A stretch of DNA of 64,000 nucleotides, taken from assembly GCA_001830045.1 (NCBI GenBank), contig MIDA01000008.1:6499-70498 (forward strand), given 5' to 3'. Position 1 is the stretch's first letter; each line of letters begins with the position of its first letter. The notes under the pieces are model-generated. The model did no database searches. It was not told the DNA's origin and saw only the letters and a list, made by a program, of their open reading frames with translations. Below, piece by piece: positions 31,482 through 61,168 of the stretch. The position numbers were made by a program, and so were the translations under genes. This stretch comes from Tenericutes bacterium RIFOXYA12_FULL_35_10 (GTDB taxonomy: Bacteria > Bacillota_I > Bacilli_A > Acholeplasmatales > Acholeplasmataceae).

Positions 31482-31537
31482 ATTATATTACAAAGCCTTC
31501 CATTTATCAATGAAATTGGGTATTGTAATCGCTCACA
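31482..31537 (-). promoter_or_regulatory. fba sigma-A promoter with upstream cre-like site
   Basis: TTGATA (31510-31505), 17 bp, TATAAT (31487-31482). TGTAATCGCTCACA at 31524-31537 fits TGWNANCGNTNWCA fully. Confidence 0.75.
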
Positions 31538-40258: not shown

Positions 40259-41200
40259 TTAAACTCCGTTCTTATAGGTTTGAACGAGATTTTCAGCATC
40301 TTTAACAAACTGATCGAGTTGTTCCCATGATTCTAATTTACAGCCTGCAGCTTTTGCGTGTCCGCCGCCCTGGTAATGGTTTGCAAGCTTGTCAATATTA
40401 GGGCCGGATGAGCGTAAGCGAATCCGAATTTCATTGGGGTATTCCATAAAGAGTGCCCAAACTGGATAACCTTCAATACCACCAATCAAGCCGACGTTAG
40501 ATGCTGCTTGTTCATCTGTGACATTATATTTTTCAATCACATCACGCGTCATCTTAATATAAACAAATCCCTTTGCAGTCACAAAATTTGAATATACATA
40601 TCCCTTTAAAGCAATCATTTCTAAAGATTCTTTAGAAAGCATTTGATCGATATATTCAACATCGACACCTTTTTCAATGAGTAGTCCTGCAAGTTGATGC
40701 GTTAACTGAGAAACTCCTCTAAACCGAAAACGTCCTGTATCTGTAACAATCCCTGTGTAAAGTGCGATCGCACCTTCTTGGGTGAGTTTAAGTTCTTTTT
40801 TAAACTTGTAATAAAAGTAAGTTATCATTTGTGCACAAGACGGAAACGTTGTGTCAACCCATCTTAAATCACCATAATTATCCACTGGAATGTGATGATC
40901 GATTTTAATGATTTCTTGTCCTAACGTGTAACGTGAATCTGAAATACGGTCTTTCACTGCTGTATCAACAACAATGGATAGCGCACCTTGGTATACATCA
41001 TCTGTGATTTGATCAACTTTACCAACAAAATCGACAAAATCACTTCTTTCTCCAACCACATAAACTTTTTTATCTGGAAATGAGGACGTGATGATATTTT
41101 TTAAGCCAAATTGTGCCCCATAACAGTCACCATCTGGTCTTTTATGACCATGGATAATAATGGTCTCATATTGTTTTATTTTATTTAATATTCTTTGCAT
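40259..41200 (-). CDS. DHH/DHHA1 phosphoesterase (NrnA-like), copy 2
   Basis: HKRPDGDCYG, VDTA, KIDHH, DTGRF, GGGHAKAAG. Start 41200. Confidence 0.93.
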   Translation of the reverse strand: MQRILNKIKQYETIIIHGHKRPDGDCYGAQFGLKNIITSSFPDKKVYVVGERSDFVDFVGKVDQITDDVYQGALSIVVDTAVKDRISDSRYTLGQEIIKIDHHIPVDNYGDLRWVDTTFPSCAQMITYFYYKFKKELKLTQEGAIALYTGIVTDTGRFRFRGVSQLTHQLAGLLIEKGVDVEYIDQMLSKESLEMIALKGYVYSNFVTAKGFVYIKMTRDVIEKYNVTDEQAASNVGLIGGIEGYPVWALFMEYPNEIRIRLRSSGPNIDKLANHYQGGGHAKAAGCKLESWEQLDQFVKDAENLVQTYKNGV

Positions 41201-42140
41201 TTTCTTTTGCCCTTTCATCTAAATCCTTTAGTACTAAATCTACTTCATTCCAATCTTTCAAGCTTGCTCCGCATGCTTGATTGTGACCACCGCCACCAAA
41301 TTTTTTTGCAATATCAACAATCGTAATCCCGCGAGCTCTAAATTCACCCACAATTAAATTGTTTTCAACATCTTCGGTAAAATTTGCCCAAATGGGTATT
41401 TCCTTTATACCTGCCATCTGATTAACCATACCTCTAGAGATGGCTTGAAATTCTAAACCACTCTTTTGAATGAGTTCAGCATCATTCTTGCGATATGCAA
41501 CACCATTTTCGGTGATTTCAAACGATGAGAATAGATTTTTTGTTAATCTTTTTTGAAGTGGTTCGGTGTAAATATAATCATAGAAATCTTGCACAGATGG
41601 TTCAAACTTCGTAATGTAAGATGCGAGTTCAAATGTCTTTGATGCGTTATTTAAATATAAGAAACGCCCCGTATCTGTAACCATACCTCCATAGAGGTAA
41701 GTTGCGGCTTCTGGTGTGACTTTTAAATTCATTTCCTTAATGATATCGACAATCATTTCAGAAGCAGATGCAAACGTTGGATCTTTATAGAAAAGTGTAA
41801 CGTTTTCGACATCGGTATCATTTTGATGGTGATCGATGATGATCACATCTGTTGCAAGTTTATAACGATCGTCACTGATTAATCGCGACACTGATACATC
41901 GGTAATAATCGCTAACGCATTGATGTAATAAGCATCAGGAATAACATCCATTTTCGCAAGATAAACCATATCATTGGAATCCCCAACGACATAAACCCTC
42001 TTATCGGGATAATTTTCTTTAATGGTCAAATATAAACCATACTGTGATCCAATCGCATCCATATCTGGTCTTAAATGACGATGGATAATGATTTGATCAT
42101 AAGATTCAATCAAATGGAGAATGTTACGTTTGATATTCAT
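41181..42140 (-). CDS. DHH/DHHA1 phosphoesterase (NrnA-like), copy 1
   Basis: HLRPDMDAIG, TDVS, IDHH, DTGRF, GGGGHNQACG. Start 42140. Confidence 0.93.
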   Translation of the reverse strand: MNIKRNILHLIESYDQIIIHRHLRPDMDAIGSQYGLYLTIKENYPDKRVYVVGDSNDMVYLAKMDVIPDAYYINALAIITDVSVSRLISDDRYKLATDVIIIDHHQNDTDVENVTLFYKDPTFASASEMIVDIIKEMNLKVTPEAATYLYGGMVTDTGRFLYLNNASKTFELASYITKFEPSVQDFYDYIYTEPLQKRLTKNLFSSFEITENGVAYRKNDAELIQKSGLEFQAISRGMVNQMAGIKEIPIWANFTEDVENNLIVGEFRARGITIVDIAKKFGGGGHNQACGASLKDWNEVDLVLKDLDERAKENAKNIK

Positions 42141-42231
42141 AGTGACCTTATACCTTTCTAATGTATTATGATAGTATATCATAGATTATGAAAAAAAACT
42201 ATGATATCTTATGTTGTCGTTCATTCGATAC

Positions 42232-42262
42232 AAAAAGCACCAGGATAGACCACGGTGCTTTT
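42232..42262. terminator. Intrinsic terminator after the nuclease gene
   Basis: AAAAAGCACC-loop-GGTGCTTTT. Confidence 0.8.
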
Positions 42263-42278
42263 CTGATCAACATTTAAC

Positions 42279-43484
42279 TTATGCCCAAGGAAGGTCTAAA
42301 TGAGGGCTCCAAACGGGTTTTTCTGTCGTTAATGTATTTGAATCATAGTTCCAATCCGGTGATTTTTCACCGCTTGGATTTGCTGGATAACCCTTTAATC
42401 CCCAACCATTTAGTCTTGCACGATATTCTGCAAATCTTAAGAATGTTAAGTAGGGAACATCTTTATAATTTAAAGCTAAATCATATGCATTGTAGGTTGA
42501 ACCAACATCTTCAGATAAACCTTCTGATACAATTAAAAATTGTGATAGATAACCATTGATCCATACTAAACCTAAGTAGCGACCATAACCTTCGTTTAGT
42601 GCATATCCAGGTATCGATTGAACATGAATCTCTTTTTGGTTAGCATCATTGAGTAAGAATTCTTTATTGTATTTACTTGCTACATAACCCCATGGTTCTG
42701 CAGAAACGTGAGATCCGTTTACTTCCGCTGTGTTTAAGTAGAAATAGCGAACTGATCCACCACCAAAACCATTGTTAGCATTAAAGTATGCTGTATCACC
42801 GTCTGCAATACCTGATACGGATGTCAATACTGCACCGCCACCACCAATATTTTCATTACTAGAATCTACGTAAGGCATATCTTTATAGCGTTGTTCTAAA
42901 CGAGGACCCGCATATAAATCATCTAGTGTTTTAATTTCATAATCATCATTTTTAATGTACTGAAAAACTTCAGGTAGATAGTAGATATAATCAAATGTGT
43001 TAAATGTTTTTGATGGTTTATAATCTTCGACAAGTCCTAGACGAATCATAGTTAAATCGTTATAGATATCAACATCAGATCCAACTTGTCCAATGTAATC
43101 AACAACTGCTTTTTTATACATCAGTTCAATGCCATCATTACCATTAAAAGGTAAAACTGCATCTGGGTTTGAAAAATCAAACTGTGATGTAATCGTTGTA
43201 TTGGTTGAATTACCACTACCAATTAAGAAATAATCATTTGCATTAATGGTTCCTTCAAGTTGAATTGTTTGAGATACTTCCAATGACCCATTAGTATAAA
43301 AATTAAAATGATAATCTTTTAGATCTATATCTTCATCTGAAGGATTATAGAGTTCAATCATGTTATCTGCTTGAACCGTTGTCTCAAAAATTTTGGAGAT
43401 GACGATAGGGGATTCTTTTTGTGTACACGCAGATACAAGAAGACCGATCATCAATAAAACAAAAATCATACTTATTTTTTTCAT
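42279..43484 (-). CDS. Lipoprotein: lamin-tail domain plus thermonuclease (SNase) domain
   Basis: Lipobox VSA-C. LTD (IELYNPSDEDIDLKDY...FNGNDGIEL). SNase motifs IADGDT, VRYFYLNTAE, EPWG, YGRYLGLVW. Confidence 0.85.
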   Translation of the reverse strand: MKKISMIFVLLMIGLLVSACTQKESPIVISKIFETTVQADNMIELYNPSDEDIDLKDYHFNFYTNGSLEVSQTIQLEGTINANDYFLIGSGNSTNTTITSQFDFSNPDAVLPFNGNDGIELMYKKAVVDYIGQVGSDVDIYNDLTMIRLGLVEDYKPSKTFNTFDYIYYLPEVFQYIKNDDYEIKTLDDLYAGPRLEQRYKDMPYVDSSNENIGGGGAVLTSVSGIADGDTAYFNANNGFGGGSVRYFYLNTAEVNGSHVSAEPWGYVASKYNKEFLLNDANQKEIHVQSIPGYALNEGYGRYLGLVWINGYLSQFLIVSEGLSEDVGSTYNAYDLALNYKDVPYLTFLRFAEYRARLNGWGLKGYPANPSGEKSPDWNYDSNTLTTEKPVWSPHLDLPWA

Positions 43485-43547
43485 TATTCTTCACCTCATA
43501 TTAAAGTAACATATGTCAATCATGTTTAAATTAAACACGTCTTATGT

Positions 43548-44444
43548 TCATGCTGAATGGTTTAATCTCTTTTGTCTTAGATGTCTTAAAACATGTTTGT
43601 GGAAAAAGAGAAAATACGTTAAGGGTAATACAATAGCAAGTTCGATTAAAATGTTTTTAACATAAATCGTATTGTAGCTATCAAGCTTTTCTAACCACAT
43701 TGAATCATAGTAGATCAATGGATTTTCGTTTAAGTTTGTTGTTCCAAACTGAGTAACTAAATCTAGGTTTTCATCCGTTAGCTGTGCGATATCACGTGAA
43801 TACGAAGCACTAAACATATCAGATGGCGTCGTTTCAATAAGTAAGCTATTTGCTAAAACGACAAGTGTTAATTTTTCACCCGATGTGATCTCATACAAAA
43901 TGGAAATTGTTTGAAGTTGAGCTTGTCCTGTCGGTGTATCAAGAAGTTCTTGGTTGATGATAATCATACGCCCTGTATCATCAAAGAGCGGTGTTGTGTA
44001 TTCCATAAATACACGTTTATTGTTATTTTCAACATCAAGATCTCTGTCAAATACAAACTCAATATACATCATATGATAATCATTGTCATCTTTTTTTGCT
44101 AAGTTATCTTCGATGTTTAAATCTGTGATTAAAAATGCAATTTGATTGATCGCTTGATTATCTTTAAAAGTAACAAATGGATAAATCGAAAAAGTTAATT
44201 TTAATTCATTATCTTCAAATGTTTGTTCATAGAGTGGTGTATTTAAAACGTAAGCATCAGACTTATCATGGAGGTTAGCGATTGAAGTTGCAGCAACCAA
44301 AGCTTGATTGTTTTCCACTAGTTCTACTTCATGATCTTCTAAAAAATTAACGACCTTCGAAGCTTCGCTAAAAGAGGCAACCACAAAGGTGAGTGCTCCA
44401 ACAAAAAAGATATAAGCAATTCTCCAAATCCATGCTGATGCCAT
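43548..44444 (-). CDS. Bitopic/2-TM membrane protein with acidic extracellular beta-rich domain, unknown function
   Basis: N-terminal and C-terminal hydrophobic helices with a basic cytoplasmic tail; no recognisable motif. Confidence 0.8.
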   Translation of the reverse strand: MASAWIWRIAYIFFVGALTFVVASFSEASKVVNFLEDHEVELVENNQALVAATSIANLHDKSDAYVLNTPLYEQTFEDNELKLTFSIYPFVTFKDNQAINQIAFLITDLNIEDNLAKKDDNDYHMMYIEFVFDRDLDVENNNKRVFMEYTTPLFDDTGRMIIINQELLDTPTGQAQLQTISILYEITSGEKLTLVVLANSLLIETTPSDMFSASYSRDIAQLTDENLDLVTQFGTTNLNENPLIYYDSMWLEKLDSYNTIYVKNILIELAIVLPLTYFLFFHKHVLRHLRQKRLNHSA

Positions 44445-44483
44445 AAATCTAACTTCCTTTAATTCAGATTTTTAAACATGAGT

Positions 44484-44513
44484 GAAAGAGCACGGCATCT
44501 GCCATGCTCTTTT
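44484..44513. terminator. Hairpin/terminator after the 921-aa lipoprotein gene
   Basis: GAAAGAGCA-CGGCATCTGCCA-TGCTCTTTTC. Confidence 0.7.
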
Positions 44514-44545
44514 CTTATACATGTTTGTTTTAAAACGATTGATAC

Positions 44546-47311
44546 TTATTCAGCTGCTGGAGTATGTGTGTGTGAACCTAAATAAGTAAATGTGTCTGCA
44601 TCATAAGCAGTCCATTGTGTTGGATCCCAAATGGTTGTACCATAAGCTACAGCTGCATTTCTAACAAGTGTATGTTCTGCTGTAGAATCTGTTCCAACTG
44701 CCCATGATGAACCTGGGTCAACACCAATGACACCAAATACATCAATGACTGTTTCTTCAGTACCATTTAACTTGATTAATGCAACTGCATCATCACCGTT
44801 AAAATATGTAATTGTAGAAGCAACGTCACCAACATTAATGATATCAGCTGCTGCTGAGCTATTGTAGATAACAAAGACTTCGCCTGGAGCTAATGTTCCA
44901 GATAAAACGATGTTATTACCATATGTTGTTGCACCATTTGAATAAAGTGCAACTTTGTAGTTTGCTAAGTCAACAGTTTGGTTTGTTGGGTTATAAATTT
45001 CAATGGCTTTATTATTGCTTGAACCTTCAATATATTCAGAAATGAATAATTCTGGATTTGGTTCAGCAAAAATAATTTCAACGACGAAAGTCTTTGTTAC
45101 AGTTTCAGTACCTTTAGTTAAAGTAGCTGTTAAACCAACTTCAACTGTACCATAAGTAGCAGGTAGTGTCACTGTGCCAGCAACTAAATCAATTAATGCA
45201 TTGTCAGCATCTTCTGAATCAGTAAATGTCCAAGCGATGGTAGAACCATTTGTACCAGCAACTGGTAAAGTGATTGTTCCATCTGCGTTGTATGATGTTA
45301 CGATTGTTAATGCTTTTGCATCTAAATTAACATAGTTTGCATCTGTTAATACAGGTGCAACGCCTGCAGCAATTTGATCACCATTGGTTAATGTTAATAA
45401 TGGGTTACCACTCGCCCAACCTAAGACTGCACCCGTAAAGTTGACATAGTCATCAACCTTAGTCGCTTGTAAGAAGGTTAAGTTAGCCAAAGTTACACGG
45501 CTATCCCACTTGAATTTAATGGTATTACCTGTTGTTTCATCAAGTAATGTCATTTCGATGTTACCATAGTTAGCATCTGTCCAAGCAGTAATCTTCATGT
45601 TTGTTAAGTTAACTCTTGTAGATTGATATGGAAGAAGTGTTGTTGCATTCCATTCAGTAACTGTTTGTAAATCAAACGCTACTGGTAATGTTGCTTCGCC
45701 TAAATCTTCAACGGTATAAGTTGTTAATTGCACGAGACCACCATATGCACCACGTGTACCAATTAAATCAACATTATGACCAATAAGTGCTTCTAAATCA
45801 GCAACTCCTGCATTATTAAATACAGAGATACCGCCTGTAGCGTCTTGAATAGCAATTGTCTTATTAGCGATGTAGCCAAGAACAACACCTTGAATTCTAA
45901 ATGTTCCTGATTCAGCTGCTCTAACGTTAGCGATTGTTGTTACTGGGTATTCACCTAATTTAACAACAAATTCTTTAACAACTGGAGCTAATGAACCATA
46001 AGAAATAGTTGCTGTTAAGCCAACATTAGCTTGTCTTCCAACTGGAACTGTAACTGCGCCCGTTGCTAAGTTAATTAAACTGTTGTCTGCATTTTCAGTA
46101 TTTGTAAATGTCCAAGCAATCGTTGTACCGTTTGCACCTGCAACTGGCAATTCTAATGTGCCATCTGCAAGCATAGCTTCTGGTAGGCTAACTGCATTTG
46201 AGTCAATATCTAATCTTTGTTGATCAGTTAAGACAGCTTCAATACCTTCTGGACCACCAACGTAGTAAATGGCAAATGCTTGGTTGTTAGAACGGTAAGT
46301 ATAAATGACAACATCGATTGTAACAGTAATGCCATCATATAAACGTAATGTTGCTAAGTCTTGTGTGTTATAGTAAACCATTAATCCACGAGCTGGAACG
46401 CCTGCTGAACCTGGAACCCATGCTTGTGTTGTGTCATAAGCAGTGTCTACGATATATGTGTTGTAGTTGCTTGTGTCACCTGGAATCATATAAACTTTAC
46501 CAGTAACGGTTGCATAAATTGATTCGAAGTTACCAGCTGATGCATCTGAACCTGCATATAAATGTTCTTCTGCAGTGACTAAAGCATCAATCTTTGTGTT
46601 AACACTTTCGATAACTTCTGCAGTTGGGTTAGCTGGAGTTGCAGTTGTTTGTTCAGTTGCAGTCCATTTTGTTAATTCCCAAATACCGAAATACCATTCA
46701 ATAGTTGCGTCGATTGTGTAAACTTTACCAATGACTAAGTTTTCTTGTGAACCACCATAAATTTGGATGATACCTGTACCATCGTAAGCGAATGATGCAT
46801 CTGAACCCTTAGCAAAAATCGTTAAGTTTTCTAAGCTAACTTGGTATGTGCCGTCATATTCTGGATCTGTTACTTCTAAAACGTCAGCAATTGTTTCAAT
46901 GACGATTTCTTCAACTTCATTTGCCTTAACTGTTAAGACAATTGACCAGTCCATGGTAAGATCTTTGGTTTCATCAAGTTCTGAAGCGATGGTTAATGTA
47001 ACGCTTAATGTAACATTGACGTTAGGTTCACCAAATGCTGGACGATTTACGGTAATAACTGCGAAACCATTATTTGCAGCACCTACTGTAACAACACCAG
47101 GATTGCTTGATTCCCAATCAGCTGTGACACCACCAACTAATGTTGTGGGCACTTCGAAACCACCGGTTATATTCGATGGGTCAGCGATAAGCGCATTAAG
47201 ACTGTCATAAGCAGTTTGTAGTTTTGCTTCAGCTGGATCTACTTTTTCTTTACAAGAAGCTAGTAAAAATCCAAATGCGACGACCGCGAGTAAAAGTAAT
47301 ACTTTTCTCAT
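44546..47311 (-). CDS. Large modular lipoprotein: (Ig-like, OB, OB) x2, Ig-like, C-terminal lamin-tail domain
   Basis: Lipobox LAS-C. Ig-like repeats LPVAG.NG.TIAWTF (two copies 882 nt apart plus a diverged N-terminal copy). OB-like segments (TIANVRAA...IQGVV...IQDATGGISVF). LTD LFISEYIEGSSNNKAIEIYNPT. No nuclease active site seen. Confidence 0.8.
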   Translation of the reverse strand: MRKVLLLLAVVAFGFLLASCKEKVDPAEAKLQTAYDSLNALIADPSNITGGFEVPTTLVGGVTADWESSNPGVVTVGAANNGFAVITVNRPAFGEPNVNVTLSVTLTIASELDETKDLTMDWSIVLTVKANEVEEIVIETIADVLEVTDPEYDGTYQVSLENLTIFAKGSDASFAYDGTGIIQIYGGSQENLVIGKVYTIDATIEWYFGIWELTKWTATEQTTATPANPTAEVIESVNTKIDALVTAEEHLYAGSDASAGNFESIYATVTGKVYMIPGDTSNYNTYIVDTAYDTTQAWVPGSAGVPARGLMVYYNTQDLATLRLYDGITVTIDVVIYTYRSNNQAFAIYYVGGPEGIEAVLTDQQRLDIDSNAVSLPEAMLADGTLELPVAGANGTTIAWTFTNTENADNSLINLATGAVTVPVGRQANVGLTATISYGSLAPVVKEFVVKLGEYPVTTIANVRAAESGTFRIQGVVLGYIANKTIAIQDATGGISVFNNAGVADLEALIGHNVDLIGTRGAYGGLVQLTTYTVEDLGEATLPVAFDLQTVTEWNATTLLPYQSTRVNLTNMKITAWTDANYGNIEMTLLDETTGNTIKFKWDSRVTLANLTFLQATKVDDYVNFTGAVLGWASGNPLLTLTNGDQIAAGVAPVLTDANYVNLDAKALTIVTSYNADGTITLPVAGTNGSTIAWTFTDSEDADNALIDLVAGTVTLPATYGTVEVGLTATLTKGTETVTKTFVVEIIFAEPNPELFISEYIEGSSNNKAIEIYNPTNQTVDLANYKVALYSNGATTYGNNIVLSGTLAPGEVFVIYNSSAAADIINVGDVASTITYFNGDDAVALIKLNGTEETVIDVFGVIGVDPGSSWAVGTDSTAEHTLVRNAAVAYGTTIWDPTQWTAYDADTFTYLGSHTHTPAAE

Positions 47312-47356
47312 TCCATTTCTCCTTTGTATTTTTTTATCTATATTATCATCACTATG

Positions 47357-48793
47357 TTAGTTGGTGATAAAGTCGAAACTCTTTTGATACTCTGAATCAA
47401 TGTAAGCTTGCAAAGCAGCATCATCTGCAGCATCAAACGCTAAAATCTTAACGAGTAATGCACCAACTTCTGTTCTTGTTTTAGAACTTAAGTTGAATAC
47501 AGAAGATGTAAAGAAGATGTCACCGTTATTTAAGAAGATTTCAATGGCTTCTTTAACGAGCTTATCTTGAGCTTGTTTCATGGTTGTAGGAACTGCAACC
47601 ACTGAATTCACATAATCAGTCCAAGCTTGTGTTTCATAAGCTGAATAACGGATTGGCGCATATCCTGAAGGAATACAGAATTGTGCTGATTTTTCTGGAG
47701 ATAACATGAATTTCGCGAATAACCAAGTTGCGATCATCTTTTGTTCATCACCTGAATTAAATAAATTGATGTTTGGTCCTTGTTGAATTTGATAACGATG
47801 CTCAGCATCATGTGCTGGAAGAGGTGCAACACCTGCACGGTATCCTGCATCAAAGACAGTTTGGCTCGCACCAATATATGCATAACGTGTACCACCTGTT
47901 GATCCGACATACATGTAGAGTTTTTCATTTGTCTTCATGATATCTGATGTATAAGCGTTACCGTTTAAGCTACGTGTTAACATTAAACCTCTATCAACCT
48001 TATCCTTGAAATAGGTTACCATTTCTTTAGATAGGTCATTGTTAAATTGAACTTCACCTTTACCGGTTGTTTCATTATAACCTGTATAAGGCGCATCCCA
48101 TTGTTTAGATGCTGTAATAAAGAGGTTATCTTCTGAATCGTAACCAAATGGAATCGCATTTGGTTCACGGAGTTTGATGTCTTCTGCAATCGCGAAAACT
48201 TCATCCCATGTGGTTGGTACATCGTAACCATGTTGTTCAAAATAAGTTGCATTGTAGAAGAATGCTTCACTTGATTTTGTAAATGGTAAAGATAAAATCG
48301 TACCAGCATTATCGTAACTTTGACCTTCTGCCCATAAACCTGGGAGGAAGTCTGCAACTTCTTCTTCAGTGTATCCAAGTGTTGGATGGCTGATGAAGTT
48401 GTTTAAAGCAAGTGGTGCTTTGGCTTGAGCATATCTAGCGATATGGTCAGGATAGCTTTCAGCGATGTCCGGTGCTGTACCCGCTGGAATTGCTAATGCA
48501 ATTTTATCTGCAAGTGCGCCGTAATCTGCCGCTGCTTTTTCTTCAATAACGGTAATATTAGGATAGATTGCCTCAAATTCTTCAATCCAATCTTGGACTA
48601 AACCTTGGCTATCTGCACCCATTCTATGCCAAAACTTGATCGTCACTTCTTTGGTGGTATCAAGTGTTGCTGTTTCTGGTAATTCATACCATTCAACGAG
48701 CTTTGCAGTTGCATCGCCACTGCGGTCACCACCACAGGAAGCTAGAAACAAGCCTGCAGTAAGTACTAATGCAATAAGTAAAATCTTTTTCAT
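47357..48793 (-). CDS. ABC transporter extracellular solute-binding lipoprotein (family 1)
   Basis: Lipobox LAS-C; IKFWH, PDIAESYPD, LSLPFTKSSEAFFYN, VPTTWDE, QGPNINLF, GYAP. Confidence 0.92.
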   Translation of the reverse strand: MKKILLIALVLTAGLFLASCGGDRSGDATAKLVEWYELPETATLDTTKEVTIKFWHRMGADSQGLVQDWIEEFEAIYPNITVIEEKAAADYGALADKIALAIPAGTAPDIAESYPDHIARYAQAKAPLALNNFISHPTLGYTEEEVADFLPGLWAEGQSYDNAGTILSLPFTKSSEAFFYNATYFEQHGYDVPTTWDEVFAIAEDIKLREPNAIPFGYDSEDNLFITASKQWDAPYTGYNETTGKGEVQFNNDLSKEMVTYFKDKVDRGLMLTRSLNGNAYTSDIMKTNEKLYMYVGSTGGTRYAYIGASQTVFDAGYRAGVAPLPAHDAEHRYQIQQGPNINLFNSGDEQKMIATWLFAKFMLSPEKSAQFCIPSGYAPIRYSAYETQAWTDYVNSVVAVPTTMKQAQDKLVKEAIEIFLNNGDIFFTSSVFNLSSKTRTEVGALLVKILAFDAADDAALQAYIDSEYQKSFDFITN

Positions 48794-48825
48794 ACGTTAC
48801 TCCTTCTTATCTAAATTTTTTAAAA

Positions 48826-49761
48826 TTATCCTTTAACGCCACTACGTGAGATACCGCTCATGATGTACTTTCTAAAGAAAACGAAGAGTAATAAGAGAGG
48901 AACCGTCACGATGACTGTTGCGGCCATCTGGTAGTTAATGAGTACGCGACCTGAACCGGTTGCAGCTTGATCTGTGAATGAACTTCTTAACCATGTTGTG
49001 ACTAACTTGAATTTCTCGTTAGCAACAATGTCTGGCCAAATGAAGGCATTCCATGCACCCATGAGTTTTAAAATCACGATGGTAACAATACTTGATTTAG
49101 CGATTGGAACCATCACTCTCCATAAATACTTATAGTCCGCACATCCATCCACTTTAGCTGCATAATACAGTTCATTTGGAATTTGTTTGAATGTTTGTCT
49201 GAGTAAGTAAATATGGAAGATCGAAACTAAGAACGGTATGATCATCGCTAAATATGAACCAGTACCTGGATCATTGACCCAACCTAAACGGGAAACTGTA
49301 ATATAGTTTGAGATGACCATCATTTCACCGGGAATCATCATGGTTGCAAGTAATATCGTGAAAATGAGTTCTTTTCCTTTAAAGTTAAGTCTTGCTAATG
49401 CGAAAGCAACTAAAATCGAGAAGAATGTTCCACCAATTGTTGAGAAGAACGCAACGATGCTTGTATTGAGTAGATATCTTGAGAAATTAATGCTTCCTTG
49501 TTGTGAAGATGAATACAAGAACACGTTCACATAGTTTTTTGGAGAAAAAACTTTGGGAAATAAACTTGTATTCAGCGAGTTTAAAACTTCATTACTACTT
49601 TGGAAAGAAACGTTTAACATCCAGTAGAATGGCACAATCACGATGAAGGCCATAAACATTAAGAATGCATATGTTCCAAATTTACCAAGGAATTGAGCTG
49701 TTCTTTGGGCTTTAAGTGTTTTATTTTCGCTGTAATCAGCATACTTTAACATTTTATCCAT
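48826..49761 (-). CDS. CUT1 ABC transporter permease (MalG-like)
   Basis: EAA loop IPNELYYAAKVDGC; start 49761 or 49767 (SD AAGGAGG). Confidence 0.93.
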   Translation of the reverse strand: MDKMLKYADYSENKTLKAQRTAQFLGKFGTYAFLMFMAFIVIVPFYWMLNVSFQSSNEVLNSLNTSLFPKVFSPKNYVNVFLYSSSQQGSINFSRYLLNTSIVAFFSTIGGTFFSILVAFALARLNFKGKELIFTILLATMMIPGEMMVISNYITVSRLGWVNDPGTGSYLAMIIPFLVSIFHIYLLRQTFKQIPNELYYAAKVDGCADYKYLWRVMVPIAKSSIVTIVILKLMGAWNAFIWPDIVANEKFKLVTTWLRSSFTDQAATGSGRVLINYQMAATVIVTVPLLLLFVFFRKYIMSGISRSGVKG

Positions 49762-49774
49762 TGTCATCTCCTCC

Positions 49775-50701
49775 TTAGTAGTGAACTTTCTTCTTGCTGA
49801 CATAGAGGTTTATGGCAGTAAAGATTAAGATAATAATAAATAACATCACGGCAGCAGCTGCACCTCTTGAATAATAAGAGACGTAGTTTGAATCAAGGCC
49901 AGCTAAACCAATTTTGTCATACACATAAGCAACTGCTGTCCATCTTTCACGGTCTAAAGTACGACCTGTTGTACCAGCAACAGCTAACACAGATTCATAG
50001 GCTTTAAATCCACCAATGAAGGATGTGATAATAATGTAACTAATAAGTGGTGATAGCAGAGGAATGGTAATACGCGTTAAGATACGTTTAGGCGGTGTTG
50101 CGTCAATCTTTGCAGCATCATAATATTGCTTAGAAATGTTTTGTAGACCGCCAATAAACACTAAAATCTTAAAGGGTAATGCACTCCATATAATATACAT
50201 AAGAACGACTAACATCCAGTGATCTCTCGTTGCAGTAACACCAACCCAGTCAATGGAGGTTTGGAATAAAGTGTTAATTAAACCTTCAGGCATAATACCT
50301 GATGTCAGTGGATGTGAGAACATAACACTGAAGACCATCCCAATCGCAAGCGTATTGGTCACATATGGCATAAAGAAGATGGTTTGGAAAATCTTTTGTA
50401 ACGGTTTAATGGAATTCAATCCAACTGCAATCAATAATGCAAGAACTGTTGAGATTGGAACCGAAATAAAGACCATTAATAATGTATTACCAATCGATTG
50501 AATAAAGATTGGATCTTTGAAGATTGCTTGGTAAGCCATGAAGTCAAAGAACATACCAAAGCTGTCATCAATCGCATTATATTGTGAGAATAATGAAATC
50601 AAAATCGTTTTAAAAAGTGGGTAAAATGTAAAAACAGTTAATAGAAATAGCGGAATCGCCATGTATAACCAGGCTTTATAATCTTTTTTATACTCAAGCA
50701 T
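49775..50701 (-). CDS. CUT1 ABC transporter permease (MalF-like)
   Basis: EAA loop ISKQYYDAAKIDA...ITIPLLSP; TAATG coupling to the ATPase. Confidence 0.93.
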   Translation of the reverse strand: MLEYKKDYKAWLYMAIPLFLLTVFTFYPLFKTILISLFSQYNAIDDSFGMFFDFMAYQAIFKDPIFIQSIGNTLLMVFISVPISTVLALLIAVGLNSIKPLQKIFQTIFFMPYVTNTLAIGMVFSVMFSHPLTSGIMPEGLINTLFQTSIDWVGVTATRDHWMLVVLMYIIWSALPFKILVFIGGLQNISKQYYDAAKIDATPPKRILTRITIPLLSPLISYIIITSFIGGFKAYESVLAVAGTTGRTLDRERWTAVAYVYDKIGLAGLDSNYVSYYSRGAAAAVMLFIIILIFTAINLYVSKKKVHY

Positions 50702-52335
50702 TAGGCAAGTCTCCGACCTGTTTCTTTATCGAAAACAAATGTTTTGTTTGCTTTTAAGTTGAAACGAACGGTTTTTTGATTTTGGAGTGCTGTTTCAACA
50801 TCATGAAGAATGATTCTAAATGAGGGTGTGATGGCACTATCGTGAGATGAAACTAACGATAAATCGCGTCCAATCGTTTCAATATACTGAGAAGTTATTT
50901 CAAGAGCTCCGCTTGCGCTCATTTCATAACCCTCAGGTCTTACACCAACAATAACGTCACAGTTTGCTTCTTTTTTAAGTTTATCTGATTTAAATACCAC
51001 TTGATTGTTAATCAATATTTGAGCATCTTTTAAAGTCGCATTATATAAACCAATGGGTGGTGTTCCTAAGAACTTAGCAACGAATAAGTTTTCTGGTTGA
51101 TCATAAACAGCTTGTGGTGCACCTTTTTGTTGTTCTTCACCAAAATTCATTAAGACGATTTCATCAGAAATAGACATCGCTTCTTCTTGGTCATGTGTAA
51201 CGAAAATCGTTGTAATACCTGTTTCACGTTGAATACGTTTGATTTCTTCTCTTGTTTGTAGGCGAAGACGTGCATCTAAGTTTGATAGTGGTTCGTCTAA
51301 GAGAAGTACTCTTGGTTTTTTAACAAGAGCGCGAGCGATCGCAACGCGTTGTTGTTGACCACCTGAAAGTTGTGCTGGCTTCTTTTCTAATTGGTCTTCG
51401 ATACCAACAAGTCTAGCCATTTCGACGACGCGTTCTTCCATGATTGCTTTATAATTAGCAGTTTTAGCTTCTATGACACCACGAACACTTGCAGGAATAG
51501 AAATTTCCATTTCTTTTGCTAAACGATCAGGTTGTGTGCCAAATTGTTTTTCGATTTCTTTTTTAACAATCATTGCTTTATCTTCGACAACTTGATAATT
51601 TTGCTTCATTTTAGGAAGTAGTTCGTTGATGTTTGCTGGAGTGATGGCTTGTTTTTCTTTGACATATTCTGCAGCAAATGATGCTAATTGGTTATTTAAA
51701 TCATTTTTTAAAGTTGAAAGATTTTGTTTGAATGCTTCTTTGATGGATTTAGCATCTTTTTGATCCTGTTTTGCAGCAATAAGATCTTGCTTATGCTGTG
51801 CTTTACGAACAAATACAGCATTATGATTTGTTGCTTTCGCATCATTTTCTAAACGACGATATTTATTTTTAAGTGCATCAAGTTTATCTGCAAATTCATA
51901 GTAAACTGCAGCTTCTTTTGGACTTTCCATGAAATAAGCTTTACGATAAGCTTCATCGATTGAACGTTTCTTTAAACCCATGTTTTCGAGTGGGAATAAA
52001 ATATTTTTTCTAACGGTCATGTGAGGATAGAGTGCGTAGTTTTGGAAAACTAAACCAATTCCTCTTTTTTCAGGTGATAATTCAGTGACATCTTCATCAC
52101 CAAAGAAAATTTTACCTGTGGTTGGTGCGAGTAAACCCGCAATCATATAAAGCGTTGTTGATTTACCACAACCAGATGGCCCAAGTAAACCGATCAACTT
52201 ACCTGATGGAATAACGACGTCAAAGTCATCGACAGCTTTTGCATCTTTTCCACCTTTTTTATCATAGAAAATCTTTGTCAAGTTTTCTAATCTAATTGAT
52301 AATCCCTTTTGTTGCACATTTTTGATATCTTCCAT
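50701..52335 (-). CDS. CUT1 ABC ATPase (MalK/UgpC-like) with a 174-aa helical insertion
   Basis: [19 protein letters not shown], insertion at 51963-51442, [27 protein letters not shown]. Start 52335 (SD AAGGAG). Confidence 0.93.
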
Positions 52336-52432
52336 TGTATACTCCTTTATTTCTATCAAAGCTATTGATTTTAGGGGTTATAGCTTTGCACATTTTTGTG
52401 TTTAAAAAACGAAAAAGACTCCTATGATTGAT

Positions 52433-52522
52433 TCATAAGAATTTCTTATTTTTAGATTCAAAAAAACGCTGATCATTCGTGCCACCTTTGGATATACTCA
52501 TATCAAAAAAAATGATCAACAT
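52433..52522 (-). CDS. Candidate 29-aa leader peptide / small protein MLIIFFDMSISKGGTNDQRFFESKNKKFL
   Basis: SD GAGGTGA 4 nt before the ATG; directly behind promoter P2; stop lies inside a terminator-like hairpin. Confidence 0.45.
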   Translation of the reverse strand: MLIIFFDMSISKGGTNDQRFFESKNKKFL

Positions 52523-52543
52523 TATCTCACCTCAACATAACCT

Positions 52544-52572
52544 ATTATATAATAATAACCTCGAAAAGACAA
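52544..52572 (-). promoter_or_regulatory. Promoter P2 of the ABC/nuclease locus
   Basis: TTGTCT (52572-52567), 17 bp, TATAAT (52549-52544). Confidence 0.6.
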
Positions 52573-52627
52573 CTTATAATTGCCTTACATCAACCTAAAT
52601 TTACTTTATTTTAGCAAAAGAAAATGA

Positions 52628-52681
52628 TGTAAGCGTTTTTAGAGGTAATTACATTATAGTATGACGTGTCACCTTTGTCAA
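52628..52681 (-). promoter_or_regulatory. Consensus promoter P1 with downstream cre-like operator
   Basis: TTGACA (52681-52676), 17 bp, TATAAT (52658-52653). TGTAAGCGTTTTTA at 52628-52641, about +5 to +18. Confidence 0.8.
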
Positions 52682-52724: not shown

Positions 52725-52746
52725 AAAGAGGCCCTGAGGACCTCTT
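52725..52746 (-). terminator. Intrinsic terminator after asnS
   Basis: Minus strand AAGAGGTCC-TCA-GGGCCTCTT then TCTTT. Confidence 0.7.
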
Positions 52747-54136
52747 AAAATTCACAATTTTTTGGTGTGCGTGGGAATGGAATGACATCTCTGATGTTTT
52801 CAACACCTGATAGATACATGATAAGTCTTTCAAAACCCATACCAAATCCTGCATGTACACAACCGCCATAACGACGTAGATCTAAATACCATTCAAGATC
52901 TTTTTGTGGTACATGAAGTTCTTCCATGCGCTTGATCAAATAGTCAAGTCTTTCTTCTCTTTGTGAACCGCCAACAAGTTCTCCTGAGCCTGGAACAAGT
53001 AGATCCATTGCTGCAACCGTCTTTCCATCATCATTTAAACGCATGTAGAACGCTTTGATATCTTTGGGCCAATCAATGACGAATACAGGTGACTTGAAGT
53101 GCTTTTCAGTTAAGTATTTCTCATGTTCGGTGTTAATATCTTGTCCGTGTTGTGGTTTATTTTCAAATTTCACACCACTCGAAAGAAGAATGTCGATCGC
53201 TTCCTTATGTGTGACTCTTGCAAAGGGTGAGTTTAAAACGTTTAACAAGCGATTTGTTAACCCTGGTTCAACGAACTTATCGAAGAATACCATTTCTTCT
53301 GGAAGTTTTTCAAATACGTATCGGATTAAGTATTTCACCATATCTTCAACAACTTCCATGTTTTTGGCTAAATCAGCAAATGCCATTTCGGGTTCAATCA
53401 TCCAGAACTCAGAAGCATGTCTTAATGTATTTGAGTTTTCTGCTCTAAATGTTGGTCCAAACGTATAGACGTTCTTAAATGCTAGTGCAAATGTTTCAGC
53501 TTCAAGTTGCCCGGTTACGGTTAAGTTTGTGGCTTTTCCAAAGAAATCCTTCTTAAAATCGATAGTTTTTTCTTCAGTGAGTGGCATTTTATCTAAAGGT
53601 AGCGTTGTAACACTAAACATTTGTCCAGCACCTTCACCATCGTTACCTGTAATGATGGGTGTATGTGTGTAGACGAAACCTCTTGATTGAAAAAACTCAT
53701 GAATGCCCATCGCAGCAACTGAACGCAATCTAAAAACAGCGTGAAAAAGATTGGTTCTAGCTCTTAAATGAGCTACCTCTCTTAAAAACTCACGTGTATG
53801 GCGTTTGGGTTGAATGGGATAATCTTCAGGTGAATCACCTAAAAGTTCAATATGAGAAGCTTTGACTTCAAAAGGTTGTTTTGCATCCGGTGTTAAAATG
53901 AGTTCTCCTTTGACTAAAATCGAACTTCCAACTCTCAGTTTTTGAACTTCTTTGAAGTTATCTATTTTTTGTTCTTCGTAAACTACTTGAAGTGTTTCAA
54001 AAAATGTACCATCGTGAAAGTTGATAAAACCGAACTCTTTTTGAGCACGATGATTTCTAACCCACCCATAAAGTTCGATCGTTTGTCCTAATTGTTTGTC
54101 TGTTTCTCTGTAAATCTGTTTGACTGTAGTTTCCAT
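52745..54136 (-). CDS. asnS: Asparaginyl-tRNA synthetase
   Basis: [56 protein letters not shown]. Confidence 0.97.
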
Positions 54137-54159: not shown

Positions 54160-54398
54160 AAAATAAAACGCCCTCAGAATAAATCTAAGGACGTAAAATA
54201 TACGCGGTACCACCTTAGTTCTAGAATGAATTCTAGCCCTTTAAAACGTTTAACGCGGTTAGCGGATGGTTCTACTTTTTGACGAGCAAATTTCTTCCAT
54301 CTCTCCGAGTGTTCTTCACGTTTGACATAGCATCAGGCTTCCACCATCCCTGATTCGCTAACCTAGAGGTTAAACGTTACTCTCTCTTCATCGATTTC
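54160..54398 (-). ncRNA. T-box riboswitch (Asn, specifier AAC)
   Basis: T-box AAGGTGGTACCGCG at 54216-54203; specifier GTGAAG-AAC-ACT with AAC at 54313-54311; terminator ACGTCCTTAG...GAGGGCGT plus U-tract. Confidence 0.93.
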
Positions 54399-54404
54399 TT
54401 CATT

Positions 54405-59456: not shown

Positions 59457-59610
59457 TGTGGATAACTTAACCACTTTTTTGTGGATATGTGGAAAACTGG
59501 GTAAAAAGTAAGATTGGCTTAATAAAGGCGTAAGATATATCAGGTTTCCCACAATCTTTCCACTTATCAACACACACCACTTGTCTGTTTTCCACAAAAA
59601 CTGTGGATAT
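59457..59610. other. oriC: DnaA-box cluster upstream of dnaA
   Basis: TGTGGATAA 59457-65 (perfect). One-mismatch boxes at 59480-88, 59488-96, 59564-72, 59588-96, 59602-10. Weaker box at 59545-53. Gene strand bias flips here. Confidence 0.9.
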
Positions 59611-59674
59611 CTTTTTCGCGCATTTTAGAGTAAGTGTGTTATTCTATGAATACGATGAAATAAGGGGTTTTAAT

Positions 59675-61039
59675 ATGAACACATACGACGTGCTTTGGCA
59701 GCGCATTTTAGCAGAACTTGAGACAACATTTAGCGAAGACATTTTTCAAGAGGTTTTTGAACCCCTCAAGTCGACTCACAAATACGCAAATGATCATGTA
59801 TACGTGATTGTTCCAAGTGAATTTATTAAAAATCGAATCAATCGACTCTATTTGGGAAAAATTAACACTTTAGCTCAAAAGTTCAATCAAGCTCCGATTC
59901 GTTTTAAATTTGTAACTGCGTCTGAAATGATTCCTGAAGAGACGTTGATCAGTCCAGAGCGTAACTTAAGTTTAAAATATAGACCTGGTAACTTAAATGC
60001 CACCTATACATTCGATAATTTTGTTGTTGGTAAATCAAACATGTTCGCATTCCGTATGGCCATGAAGGTTGCAGACCAACCTGGTGCTGTTGCGAACCCA
60101 CTTTACATCTTTGGTGATGTAGGTTTAGGTAAAACCCACTTAATGCAAGCCATCGGTAACTACATTTTAGACCAAGATATTAATAAAAAAGTCCTCTATG
60201 TCAAAGCAGATGGTTTTATTGAAGATTTTGCTAACCTATTAAAGAAAGAACGCATGGAAGATTTTAATGCGAAATACCGTGAGATTGATGTTCTTCTAGT
60301 CGATGATATTCAAATCATGGGTGGCGCTACTAAAACACAAATGGAGTTCTTTAAACTCTTTGATTATCTTTATCAAGCAAATAAACAAATTGTGATTACA
60401 AGTGATAAACCAGCTTCTGAATTAAAGAACATAATGACCCGCTTAACATCACGTTTTGAAGTCGGTTTAACCGTTGATATTCAAGTTCCTGATCTCGAAC
60501 ACCGCATTGAAATCTTAAAGCGTAAGCTCGCATCAGAATCTAGTGATATTCATGACATTCCAAATAACGTTTTAGAGTTCATCGCATCTTCTTTCGTAAC
60601 AAACATTAGAGAACTCGAAGGTGCCTTAAAACGCGTACTATTCTACTGCTTAACGAATAACCTCGATATGACAGTTGAAACCGTTAATGAGGCCCTGGAA
60701 CCACTCTTAAAGACGAAGCGGAAGAGTGATTCTTTAAACGAAAATAACTATGATCGAATCCAATCTATTGTCAGCGATTTTTATGGAATTACATTAGATG
60801 ATCTCGTTGGAAAAAAGAGACATTCTAAATATATATTGCCAAGACATATCGCGATGTATATTATTAAATTAAGATATAACATTCCTTATAAAACCATCGG
60901 ATCTCTCTTCGGAGATCGTGACCATTCCACTGTTTTAGCTGCATGTGAAAAGATTGATAATGATTTGAAACAAGATGCCGCATTAAAGATTGCAGTGGAC
61001 ACCATCATTAAAAAAATTGATGCATTTAACCGCAAATAA
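59675..61039 (+). CDS. dnaA: Chromosomal replication initiator DnaA
   Basis: NPLYIFGDVGLGKTHL, LLVDDIQ, RELEGAL, RDHSTV. Start moved from 59603 to 59675 (SD AAGGGG). Confidence 0.98.
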   Translation: MNTYDVLWQRILAELETTFSEDIFQEVFEPLKSTHKYANDHVYVIVPSEFIKNRINRLYLGKINTLAQKFNQAPIRFKFVTASEMIPEETLISPERNLSLKYRPGNLNATYTFDNFVVGKSNMFAFRMAMKVADQPGAVANPLYIFGDVGLGKTHLMQAIGNYILDQDINKKVLYVKADGFIEDFANLLKKERMEDFNAKYREIDVLLVDDIQIMGGATKTQMEFFKLFDYLYQANKQIVITSDKPASELKNIMTRLTSRFEVGLTVDIQVPDLEHRIEILKRKLASESSDIHDIPNNVLEFIASSFVTNIRELEGALKRVLFYCLTNNLDMTVETVNEALEPLLKTKRKSDSLNENNYDRIQSIVSDFYGITLDDLVGKKRHSKYILPRHIAMYIIKLRYNIPYKTIGSLFGDRDHSTVLAACEKIDNDLKQDAALKIAVDTIIKKIDAFNRK

Positions 61040-61168
61040 ATGTTTATAAAATAAGGGAAATGTGGTATAATAATAGCAGTGTTAAGCCTTTATCGGATTT
61101 ACCCACAAACCCACATTTGTAACAACAATAATTAAAGATGAATATTAAAAAAATAAAGGAGCCCGCAT
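61040..61168. other. dnaA-dnaN intergenic region (possible second oriC half / unwinding region)
   Basis: AT-rich; TTACCCACA box at 61099-61107; TG-G-TATAAT at 61063-61071. Confidence 0.5.

Follow-up and report, generated by a model that had tools for sequence, protein, structure and literature searches.

Nine genes on one strand

We analyzed a 64,000-nucleotide stretch of contig MIDA01000008.1 (positions 6,499 to 70,498 of the forward strand; hereafter "the window") from Tenericutes bacterium RIFOXYA12_FULL_35_10 (assembly GCA_001830045.1), an Acholeplasmataceae metagenome-assembled genome (MAG) from groundwater whose proteins recur identically on Rifle groundwater metagenome contigs and in GCA_001830945.1. 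Our subject is the part at 40259-52681, a candidate locus for foraging on nucleic acids, in which nine genes run in the same direction on the minus strand (40259-52335) downstream of a consensus promoter. An initial annotation, made from the letters of the window and a list of its open reading frames (ORFs), had described this part as a surface-to-cytoplasm system consisting of a capture scaffold, a nuclease, an ATP-binding cassette (ABC) importer and oligonucleases. ORF calls together with Pfam and NCBIfam searches recovered every element that it had listed, the promoter as well as the nine genes, at their positions on the minus strand. In order from the promoter, and with lengths in amino acids (aa), the genes are:

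50701-52335, minus strand: ABC ATPase, 544 aa, UgpC/MalK-like; PF00005 (ABC_tran, E = 3e-35) matches in two stretches, residues 22-142 and 304-551
49775-50701, minus strand: ABC permease 1, UgpA/MalF-like; PF00528 (BPD_transp_1); best NCBIfam match UgpA, far under its cut-off
48826-49803 (likely start 49761), minus strand: ABC permease 2, UgpE/MalG-like; PF00528 (BPD_transp_1); gene calls give 311 aa
47357-48793, minus strand: substrate-binding lipoprotein of the UgpB/dinucleotide-binder branch of CUT1; SBP_bac_8 (PF13416, E = 6e-37); lipobox LASC
44546-47311, minus strand: 921-aa surface lipoprotein; three aBig_2 domains and a C-terminal lamin-tail domain (LTD) in Pfam; lipobox LASC
43548-44444, minus strand: 298-aa membrane protein; N- and C-terminal transmembrane helices around a beta-sandwich ectodomain of ~235 aa (model pLDDT 82)
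42279-43484, minus strand: nuclease lipoprotein, 401 aa; LTD at residues 23-134 and a staphylococcal-nuclease (SNase) domain at ~215-365; lipobox VSAC
41181-42182 (likely start 42140), minus strand: DHH/DHHA1 enzyme a, NrnA-like; best PDB match Bacillus subtilis NrnA (5J21, E = 1e-51)
40259-41218, minus strand: DHH/DHHA1 enzyme b, NrnA-like; best PDB match B. subtilis NrnA (5J21, E = 2.5e-71)

The binding protein, the 921-aa protein (both with lipobox LASC) and the nuclease (VSAC) thus carry lipoprotein signal peptides. The ATPase is lengthened by a helical insert of ~175 aa, rich in K, E and Q, at about residues 125-300 between the Q-loop and the signature motif. This insert is limited to a subset of the Acholeplasma-type loci (ATPase 488-597 aa); other Acholeplasmatales and all Clostridia-type loci (ATPase ~367 aa) lack it.

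The binding protein keeps a phosphate site

By profile, the transporter comes nearest to the glycerol-3-phosphate importer Ugp: The top NCBIfam matches of all four ABC components are Ugp proteins, and the Acholeplasma hippikon homologue of the binding protein (72% identical; the A. laidlawii homologue is 66% identical) bears the UniRef title of a glycerol-3-phosphate transporter. The expectation that public annotation would speak of a sugar transporter was borne out in that databases label the binding protein as one for sugars or glycerol-3-phosphate. All four components score far under the equivalog cut-offs, the binding protein reaching 46.4 bits where the UgpB model demands 411. In a PDB profile search, the closest solved structures were those of the Thermus thermophilus 7c0f/7c0x series, followed by UgpB. 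We take 7c0f/7c0x to be the binder of the dinucleotide uridylyl-3'-5'-phosphoguanosine (U3G) of Chandravanshi et al. 2021.

A Thermus dinucleotide binder that is close kin of UgpB has been described; this protein, UgpB and the glycerophosphocholine binder all share, with strict conservation, two Tyr and two Ser that grip the phosphate, and UgpB alone has two Trp that clamp the glycerol (PMC12718374). We aligned the binding-protein family of the locus with Escherichia coli UgpB and the 7c0x sequence and found that Y91, S174, S298 and Y378, which are invariant or near-invariant in the family, fall on the four phosphate positions of UgpB/7c0x. The Trp-x-x-Trp glycerol clamp of UgpB is not kept (GWQGW versus EDNLF, with W169 replaced by D222 and W172 by F225), and the family has invariant motifs of its own, PFGYDS..N and QQGPN. 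Since the four phosphate positions are kept and the UgpB Trp are replaced, the family looks adapted to some phosphate ester other than glycerol-3-phosphate.

These data leave little room for a true Ugp-type importer of glycerol-3-phosphate or glycerophosphodiesters that is joined to the nuclease merely via shared phosphate scavenging, a reading that we consider quite improbable. It would account for the Ugp top matches, for the UniRef title of the A. hippikon homologue and for the conserved phosphate-binding residues, but not for the distance to the equivalog cut-offs (46 versus 411 bits for the binding protein) or the lost glycerol clamp. Nor does the locus hold a UgpQ/GlpQ phosphodiesterase; its operator is cre-like rather than Pho-like, and its constant partners, as described in the following section, are a nuclease (61/61) and an OB-fold protein (52/55).

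The nuclease-transporter neighborhood is conserved across phyla

All nine genes occur in the same order in A. laidlawii. In more distant Acholeplasmatales, with binding proteins that are 38-43% identical to that of the window, everything except the 298-aa gene is kept, i.e., the ATPase, the permeases, the binding protein, the aBig_2 protein, the LTD-SNase and the two DHH genes. When species-representative genomes were scanned with a profile of the binding protein, at least 591 loci came up; 80 of these entered the analysis, 63 of them from outside Acholeplasmatales. For these 80, ORFs were called and labeled by phmmer and locally built profiles, and representatives were checked against Pfam. 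The core gene order repeated in 80/80 of the loci examined, which, together with the nine-gene order in A. laidlawii, makes the observation more than chance.

According to their record titles, the 63 outside loci belong to Oscillospiraceae, Lachnospiraceae, other Clostridia, Bacilli, Erysipelotrichales and Spirochaetes, and most come from gut MAGs. Their binding proteins share 32-38% identity with that of the window, and their genes run in the order ATPase, permease, permease, binding protein, SNase. Wherever there was enough flank to see it (61/61 loci), an SNase-domain lipoprotein of ~450 aa lay directly 3' of the binding-protein gene, and an OB-fold lipoprotein (PF01336, sometimes with aBig_2) came next in 52/55. 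A SurE nucleotidase was found within 10 kb in 17/29 of the outside loci and two adjacent DHH genes in 17/29; in these Clostridia-type loci the DHH pair usually sits on the opposite strand, beside SurE. Just upstream of the ATPase, 47/63 encode an RDD-family membrane protein (PF06271, ~262 aa; loci L024-L088 in our numbering, e.g., L062:5172-5960), a membrane accessory different from the 298-aa protein of the window. Further neighbors, each seen in five to eight loci, are an NT5C deoxynucleotidase-guanylate kinase fusion, a Metallophos/5'-nucleotidase and an HD dGTPase-like phosphohydrolase (examples at L069:5051-6163, L036:2379-4832 and L042:12397-13605), with the 5'-nucleotidase present in 7/63.

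The gene context, with its nuclease in 61/61 loci, its OB lipoprotein, and SurE and DHH enzymes in relatives, strongly supports a role in nucleic-acid use, and we consider it very likely that the locus serves nucleic-acid scavenging, with the ABC system taking up some product of the nuclease. The initial annotation had named neighborhood conservation as a check and had held that unlinked ABC and nuclease genes in relatives would speak against it; the two are linked in 61/61 distant loci. Its scavenging theme is upheld by the nuclease gene directly past that of the binding protein, and its claim that a "sugar-type" ABC system is functionally tied to the nuclease by an adjacency that is kept across phyla.

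That adjacency, which survives rearrangements of gene order as well, also argues against a very improbable alternative, in which the surface proteins target extracellular DNA as a structure (biofilm matrix or host traps) or act as a toxin, and the ABC system is an unrelated sugar importer next door. In mycoplasmas, homologues of the nuclease do break down neutrophil traps and have cytotoxic effects (PMC9740415, PMC7954426), and the importer is publicly annotated as a sugar transporter, but the organism here is a groundwater MAG, and the locus holds no glycoside hydrolases, the sugar-degrading genes lying elsewhere in the window near a major facilitator superfamily (MFS) transporter gene.

More weight, although still a minor share, goes to the possibility that the same surface machinery feeds an ABC system that imports dephosphorylated products (nucleosides, nucleobases, deoxyribose or ribose), with the DHH enzymes as housekeeping neighbors. 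Similar neighborhood evidence from Izemoplasmatales loci led Wasmund et al. to "probable nucleoside or nucleobase transporters" (PMC8289736). Uncharged sugars are the typical cargo of CUT1 systems, a 5'-nucleotidase is encoded in 7/63 distant loci, and the DHH pair of the window sits behind a terminator. Against this reading, Pfam and NCBIfam searches found no secreted nucleotidase or phosphatase in the window locus, the binding-protein family retains all four residues with which the UgpB branch contacts phosphate, and a cytoplasmic SurE and two NrnA-like genes co-localize in 17/29 distant loci, which is difficult to reconcile with an uptake of nucleosides alone. To our knowledge, moreover, the characterized bacterial nucleoside ABC importers use binding proteins of the BmpA/PnrA type and not of this family. 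We judge this alternative unlikely, and for the cargo we lean toward phosphorylated mono-, di- or oligonucleotides that are processed by the NrnA pair, with odds somewhat better than even.

One locus of the 80 stands out by its title: L017 (CAMBSI010000002.1, "MAG: Staphylococcus epidermidis") is an Acholeplasma-type locus with a 69% identical binding protein and the ATPase insert, and this bin is probably mislabeled or contaminated.

Surface proteins and cytoplasmic enzymes

The 921-aa lipoprotein consists of an aBig_2 domain (~45-130), an OB pair (~140-355), a second aBig_2 domain (~360-455), a second OB pair (~457-650), a third aBig_2 domain (~655-748) and the LTD (751-905). An AlphaFold2 model built with 48 homologues (pLDDT 90.4) shows three Ig-like domains that alternate with two beta-barrel pairs and end in the LTD. 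Foldseek matched the barrel pairs to tandem OB folds in the PDB (probability 1.0, E = 1e-5 to 1e-8), among them dsDNA-bound HIN-200 domains, Teb1, the Oxytricha telomere end-binding protein (TEBP) and POT1. The OB folds of this protein are seen solely in the model and in the Pfam matches of homologues (PF01336, PF04076). From the model we infer that the protein binds nucleic acid. Pfam, NCBIfam and the model revealed no catalytic domain in it, and Pfam domains, model and Foldseek agree with its earlier description as a non-catalytic Ig/OB/LTD lipoprotein. Its homologues (P0143-P0196 in our numbering) vary in build: The longer ones (~1,190-1,216 aa) add a BOF/YdeI-type OB domain (PF04076), and shorter ones (~625 aa), as well as the A. 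laidlawii orthologue, have no LTD. As read from these sequences, the scaffold is modular and its LTD dispensable.

We aligned the nuclease with staphylococcal nuclease and with its orthologues. Invariant in the family are the DGDT motif (D19-T22 in SNase numbering, including the Ca ligand D21), R35, E43 and R87; the second Ca ligand, D40, varies between Asp and Asn across the family and is Asn in several Clostridia-type proteins. On these residues, the enzyme is probably active. Nucleases of the staphylococcal type yield 3'-phosphorylated mono-, di- and short oligonucleotides.

The 298-aa membrane protein between scaffold and nuclease matched no Pfam or NCBIfam family, even at E up to 5, and its confident model matched no PDB fold with an E-value below 0.1. 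The family is small (~100 clusters among 1.8 billion representatives, all of ~300 aa) and evolves fast, with 36% identity between the window protein and its A. laidlawii counterpart versus 66% for the binding protein. Its gene is present in 9/21 Acholeplasma-type loci and stays beside the nuclease gene even where the pair has moved upstream or become inverted (L014 and L021); neither the more distant Acholeplasmatales nor any Clostridia-type locus examined has it. Because it occurs patchily and tracks the nuclease, not the importer, the sequence comparison points to a lineage-specific partner of the nuclease and not to a general organizer of the system, the part that had earlier been given to it.

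Both DHH proteins, which lack signal peptides, align with B. subtilis NrnA from end to end and keep the DHH and GGGH motifs intact; they score 268.6 and 236.0 bits with the NCBIfam NrnA equivalog, both below its cut-off of 350. With NrnA as the best PDB match and signal peptides absent, their description as NrnA-like cytoplasmic enzymes holds.

Promoters, leader and expression in groundwater

The signals that we found around and between the genes are:

52653-52681, minus strand: promoter P1, TTGACA-17-TATAAT, matching the consensus at 12/12 positions
52628-52641, no strand assigned: palindromic cre-like operator TGTAAGCGTTTTTA, beginning 11 nucleotides (nt) past the -10 box of P1
52544-52572, minus strand: promoter P2, TTGTCT-17-TATAAT, within a block, TATTATATAAT, that is invariant in the leaders of relatives
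52433-52522, minus strand: leader small ORF of 29 codons, MLIIFFDMSISKGGTNDQRFFESKNKKFL, behind an invariant GAGGTGA ribosome-binding site
52404-52442, minus strand: candidate leader terminator/attenuator hairpin ATTCTTATGA-atcaa-TCATAGGAGT with a U-run; the stop codon of the small ORF lies within its 5' arm
44487-44510, minus strand: GC-rich hairpin AGAGCATGGC-agat-GCCGTGCTCT with a weak U-tail, past the 921-aa gene, where a transcript contig ends (44507)
42231-42262, minus strand: terminator-like hairpin AAAAGCACC...GGTGCTTTT with a U-run, past the nuclease gene

P1 is one of only two perfect matches to the promoter consensus in 16 kb. The operator matches 13/14 positions of the cre consensus that we used, TGWAANCGNTNWCA. 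We did not accept the number of cre-like matches as evidence for a site, with 6 observed in the window versus 7.3 expected, and relied on positional conservation instead. P1 and the operator are both kept in L006, L007, L009, L011, L012 and L023, and the offset between the two is constant at 39-41 nt in five to six diverged relatives (binding proteins ~40-80% identical). Since this spacing is kept in relatives down to 40% binding-protein identity, we accept the palindrome as a credible LacI/CcpA-type operator. Of the catabolite-type promoter in the initial annotation, P1 is a perfect consensus match; the count of cre matches is at chance level, and the operator is credible solely via the conserved spacing. 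The sole perfect cre consensus of the window, TGTAATCGCTCACA, lies at 31524-31537 between the genes for CTP synthase and fructose-bisphosphate aldolase and hints that CcpA-type control is present in the organism.

Equivalent small ORFs of 25-32 codons occur in the leaders of six relatives, where the peptide is poorly conserved (it is called as a gene in L003). A U6-7 tract is always present in them, and in the window it is the U7 tract at 52460-52466. The hairpin overlaps or closely trails the stop codon of the small ORF across the relatives' leaders, and in an RNAalifold alignment of seven leaders it has 9 pairs, 6 of them with compensatory changes. A riboswitch in this leader of ~300 nt was considered and rejected, as an Rfam scan gave no family at gathering or permissive thresholds. 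In the E. coli pyrBI leader, RNA polymerase pauses at a U-tract when UTP is low, and the ribosome then blocks formation of the terminator. By analogy, the conserved layout of the leader suggests nucleotide-sensitive, ribosome-coupled attenuation of the pyrBI type.

Two groundwater metatranscriptomes (X21 and X23) have contigs that are identical to the locus and cover the ATPase, binding-protein and 921-aa genes. One contig begins at 52536, 8 nt past the -10 box of P2. Contig depth, a crude measure that DNA carry-over may affect, was highest for the 921-aa gene (20.7, the deepest of a 19.5-kb stretch that otherwise had 0-11), with 7.5-11 for the binding protein, ~7 for the ATPase and low values (2-3) over the DHH genes. 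A single contig spans the 3' end of the binding-protein gene and the whole 921-aa gene and stops at 44507, within the GC-rich hairpin, which is possibly a partial terminator or an mRNA 3' end.

Genomic setting

The locus adjoins the replication origin, as dnaA and dnaN (59603-62299) are only ~7 kb away, with a turn in GC skew near 62 kb. Its surroundings are kept across Acholeplasmataceae: On one side lie rnpA, yidC, jag, rmuC and a synthetase gene, and on the other side, a ttcA-like tRNA-modification gene that comes after the DHH pair, mgtC, trmE and dnaX. The synthetase gene, for a class II aminoacyl-tRNA synthetase (52745-54136), lies directly upstream, and a strong terminator (52726-52746) parts it from the locus promoter. 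Two T-box leaders are present on the minus strand, one ahead of this synthetase gene (54184-54400) and one at 853-1044.

Elsewhere on the minus strand, at 4589-14656, a carbohydrate cluster encodes an MFS_2 sugar transporter, GH3, GH2, a GH36 alpha-galactosidase and a GH13 alpha-amylase; recognizable sugar-degrading genes therefore lie apart from the nuclease-linked ABC system, beside an MFS transporter gene. A 7TM-GGDEF diguanylate cyclase (21118-22767) and a 791-aa protein with three RsgI-like central domains (23177-25552) are unrelated to the locus. We also considered DNA uptake of the competence type and rejected it, there being no ComEC/ComEA-like genes within the locus.

A proposed route from polymer to nucleotide pool

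Taken together, these observations suggest a route by which this wall-less, single-membrane bacterium would scavenge nucleic acids, starting at the cell surface. The lipid-anchored 921-aa protein, with two OB pairs held apart by three Ig-like spacers and followed by the LTD, would hold extracellular DNA or RNA, and the lipid-anchored LTD-SNase would cut what is held, presumably to 3'-phosphorylated mono-, di- and short oligonucleotides. The binding lipoprotein would capture these phosphorylated products and pass them to the CUT1-type ABC importer. Inside the cell, the two NrnA-like DHH enzymes would degrade the short oligonucleotides and act on 3'-phosphates, yielding mononucleotides for salvage, with a SurE nucleotidase joining this step in distant relatives. 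Expression would start from two promoters, one of which overlaps the putative LacI/CcpA-type operator, and would probably be tuned further by the leader attenuator. To this whole chain of surface capture, cutting, ABC import of phosphorylated products and finishing by NrnA enzymes, we assign a probability of roughly 60%.

Several observations weigh against it. For the transporter, similarity cannot separate the dinucleotide binder from UgpB because their E-values in the profile search are nearly equal (1e-27 and, for E. coli UgpB, 3e-26); the binding protein is only 21-23% identical to either, and the imported ligand is something that we infer across the whole binding-protein family. For the scaffold, a Pfam search with the isolated OB segments gave no match. 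In one Clostridia-type locus, the 1003-aa protein that takes the place of the scaffold is homologous to the 921-aa protein over an aBig-OB-OB-aBig unit (E = 2e-10), but a 616-aa Clostridia-type OB protein does not reach significant homology (E = 0.017), so that the "scaffold" class of the distant loci is heterogeneous, partly homologous and partly just analogous. The SNase domain of the window nuclease scores 17.8-19.3 bits in Pfam, under the cut-off of 21 bits that its orthologues exceed, and has Asn at the position of D40. The 298-aa and nuclease genes had zero contig depth in both metatranscriptomes. Given the hairpin after the nuclease gene, the DHH pair is probably a transcription unit of its own, as it is in Clostridia-type loci. 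Enzymes of the NrnA type have housekeeping roles too. Finally, Wasmund et al. take the ABC systems of Izemoplasmatales to be importers of nucleosides or nucleobases, arguing that a nucleotide with its phosphate cannot pass a membrane without help (PMC8289736).

A wider and more tentative statement, which we hold at somewhat less than even odds, joins three parts. The binding proteins and their ABC systems would form the first dedicated importer family for phosphorylated nuclease products (3'-nucleotides, dinucleotides or short oligonucleotides); a "nucleic-acid utilization locus" with a surface tandem-OB capture lipoprotein, an SNase lipoprotein and a cytoplasmic NrnA pair (and SurE in some lineages) would be widespread, being common to Acholeplasmatales and to many Clostridia, Bacilli, Erysipelotrichales and Spirochaetes of the gut, and probably to mycoplasmas as well; and in Acholeplasmataceae a pyrBI-like, UTP-sensitive leader-peptide attenuator would turn scavenging on when nucleotide supply is low.

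The question matters for how wall-less bacteria and other nucleotide auxotrophs move the products of nucleic-acid breakdown across the membrane, where a role for the nuclease-linked ABC systems of mycoplasmas has been "postulated" for nearly twenty years. The comparative data sharpen this hypothesis, with a phosphate site that is kept, nuclease and OB partners that are invariant, and cytoplasmic partners that act on short oligonucleotides and 3'-phosphates. The cultivable A. laidlawii, with all nine genes, offers a tractable conserved version. If the proposal is true, then gut Clostridia and Spirochaetes carry hundreds of genes whose "multiple sugar transport" annotation needs correcting, and extracellular DNA and RNA are a substrate with a utilization locus of their own in single-membrane bacteria.

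Comparison with known systems

In mycoplasmas, genes for SNase lipoproteins adjoin UgpC/A/E-like ABC operons with a putative binding lipoprotein; a supply of nucleic-acid precursors has long been the proposed role of these operons (mhp379; MAG_5030-5070; MPN133-136; MG186-190), and in M. agalactiae the nuclease and ABC genes are co-transcribed (PMC3585158, PMC9740415). The window locus resembles them in its SNase lipoprotein with catalytic residues and in the same-strand UgpC/A/E-like ABC genes with a binding lipoprotein. It differs in that its nuclease carries a lamin-tail domain, that the 921-aa Ig/OB/LTD and 298-aa proteins are interposed, and that there are two DHH paralogues; a DHH gene (MgpA/NrnA) also follows the SNase-ABC operon in M. 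genitalium and M. pneumoniae. Unlike mycoplasmas, the source organism is free-living or environmental, and the comparison is one of gene content.

The "DNA-degradation loci" of Izemoplasmatales that Wasmund et al. described in 2021 comprise nucleases, 3'-5' nucleases, phosphohydrolases, and ABC and Pst transporters, together with a 1,049-aa protein that has nucleic-acid-binding, nuclease and LTD domains; the same authors noted that kin of the ABC binding subunit also neighbor nucleases, and drew the analogy to polysaccharide utilization loci (PMC8289736). Such loci are induced by DNA or RNA in cultured strains (Zheng et al. 2021, 2023; PMC8397711, PMC10470597), among them a Hujiaoplasma nuclease/NrnA/ABC locus that is induced by DNA plus RNA and that we liken to the window locus by its description (PMC10470597). 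Compared by published descriptions, the window locus shares the extracellular nuclease, the ABC system, genes of the 3'-5' nuclease/phosphohydrolase kind, and a large nucleic-acid-binding/LTD protein. It differs in having one nuclease instead of several and no Pst system (no Pst components are among the genes at 35.7-58.7 kb), and in that the 921-aa protein lacks the nuclease domain of the large Izemoplasmatales protein, the nuclease being a separate 401-aa LTD protein. The link to Izemoplasmatales DNA degraders that the initial annotation drew concerns relatives and not the source lineage itself, which is Acholeplasmataceae; that the window might stem from Izemoplasmatales was considered and rejected, given the identity of its proteins to those of Acholeplasma.

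Among single proteins, the binding lipoprotein shares fold family and phosphate Tyr/Ser with UgpB, the Mycobacterium tuberculosis glycerophosphocholine binder and the Thermus U3G binder, but its own invariant motifs, its 21-23% identity and the Asp in place of the first clamp Trp set it apart from these UgpB-branch binders. The DHH enzymes are like B. subtilis NrnA (nanoRNase/pAp phosphatase) in their full-length alignment and intact motifs; they are unlike it in forming a conserved adjacent pair, often with SurE, a pairing that is not a described feature of NrnA.

In the literature that we searched, we found no prior account of how far the six-gene core extends beyond Mollicutes (an absence of evidence only), no prior phosphate-site argument for a phosphorylated ligand and no prior report of the proposed leader attenuator. 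The picture of a polysaccharide-utilization-like locus for DNA holds as an analogy in function: As in the polysaccharide utilization loci of Bacteroidota, one regulated locus unites a binder and a depolymerase at the surface with a dedicated importer and with enzymes that finish the breakdown inside the cell. Here, unlike there, the cell has no outer membrane, the importer is of the ABC type and the polymer is nucleic acid, and Pfam and NCBIfam searches found no TonB-dependent transporter (SusC) or SusD homologue in the locus. Neither the idea of such a locus nor the analogy is new: Both have been published for Izemoplasmatales (PMC8289736), and the idea has been proposed for the SNase-ABC operons of mycoplasmas (PMC3585158, PMC9740415). 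The window locus is thus a variant of a published kind, set apart by having just one nuclease, a scaffold that is separate and non-catalytic, a membrane partner confined to the lineage, an NrnA-like pair and a distinctive leader, and by lacking Pst.

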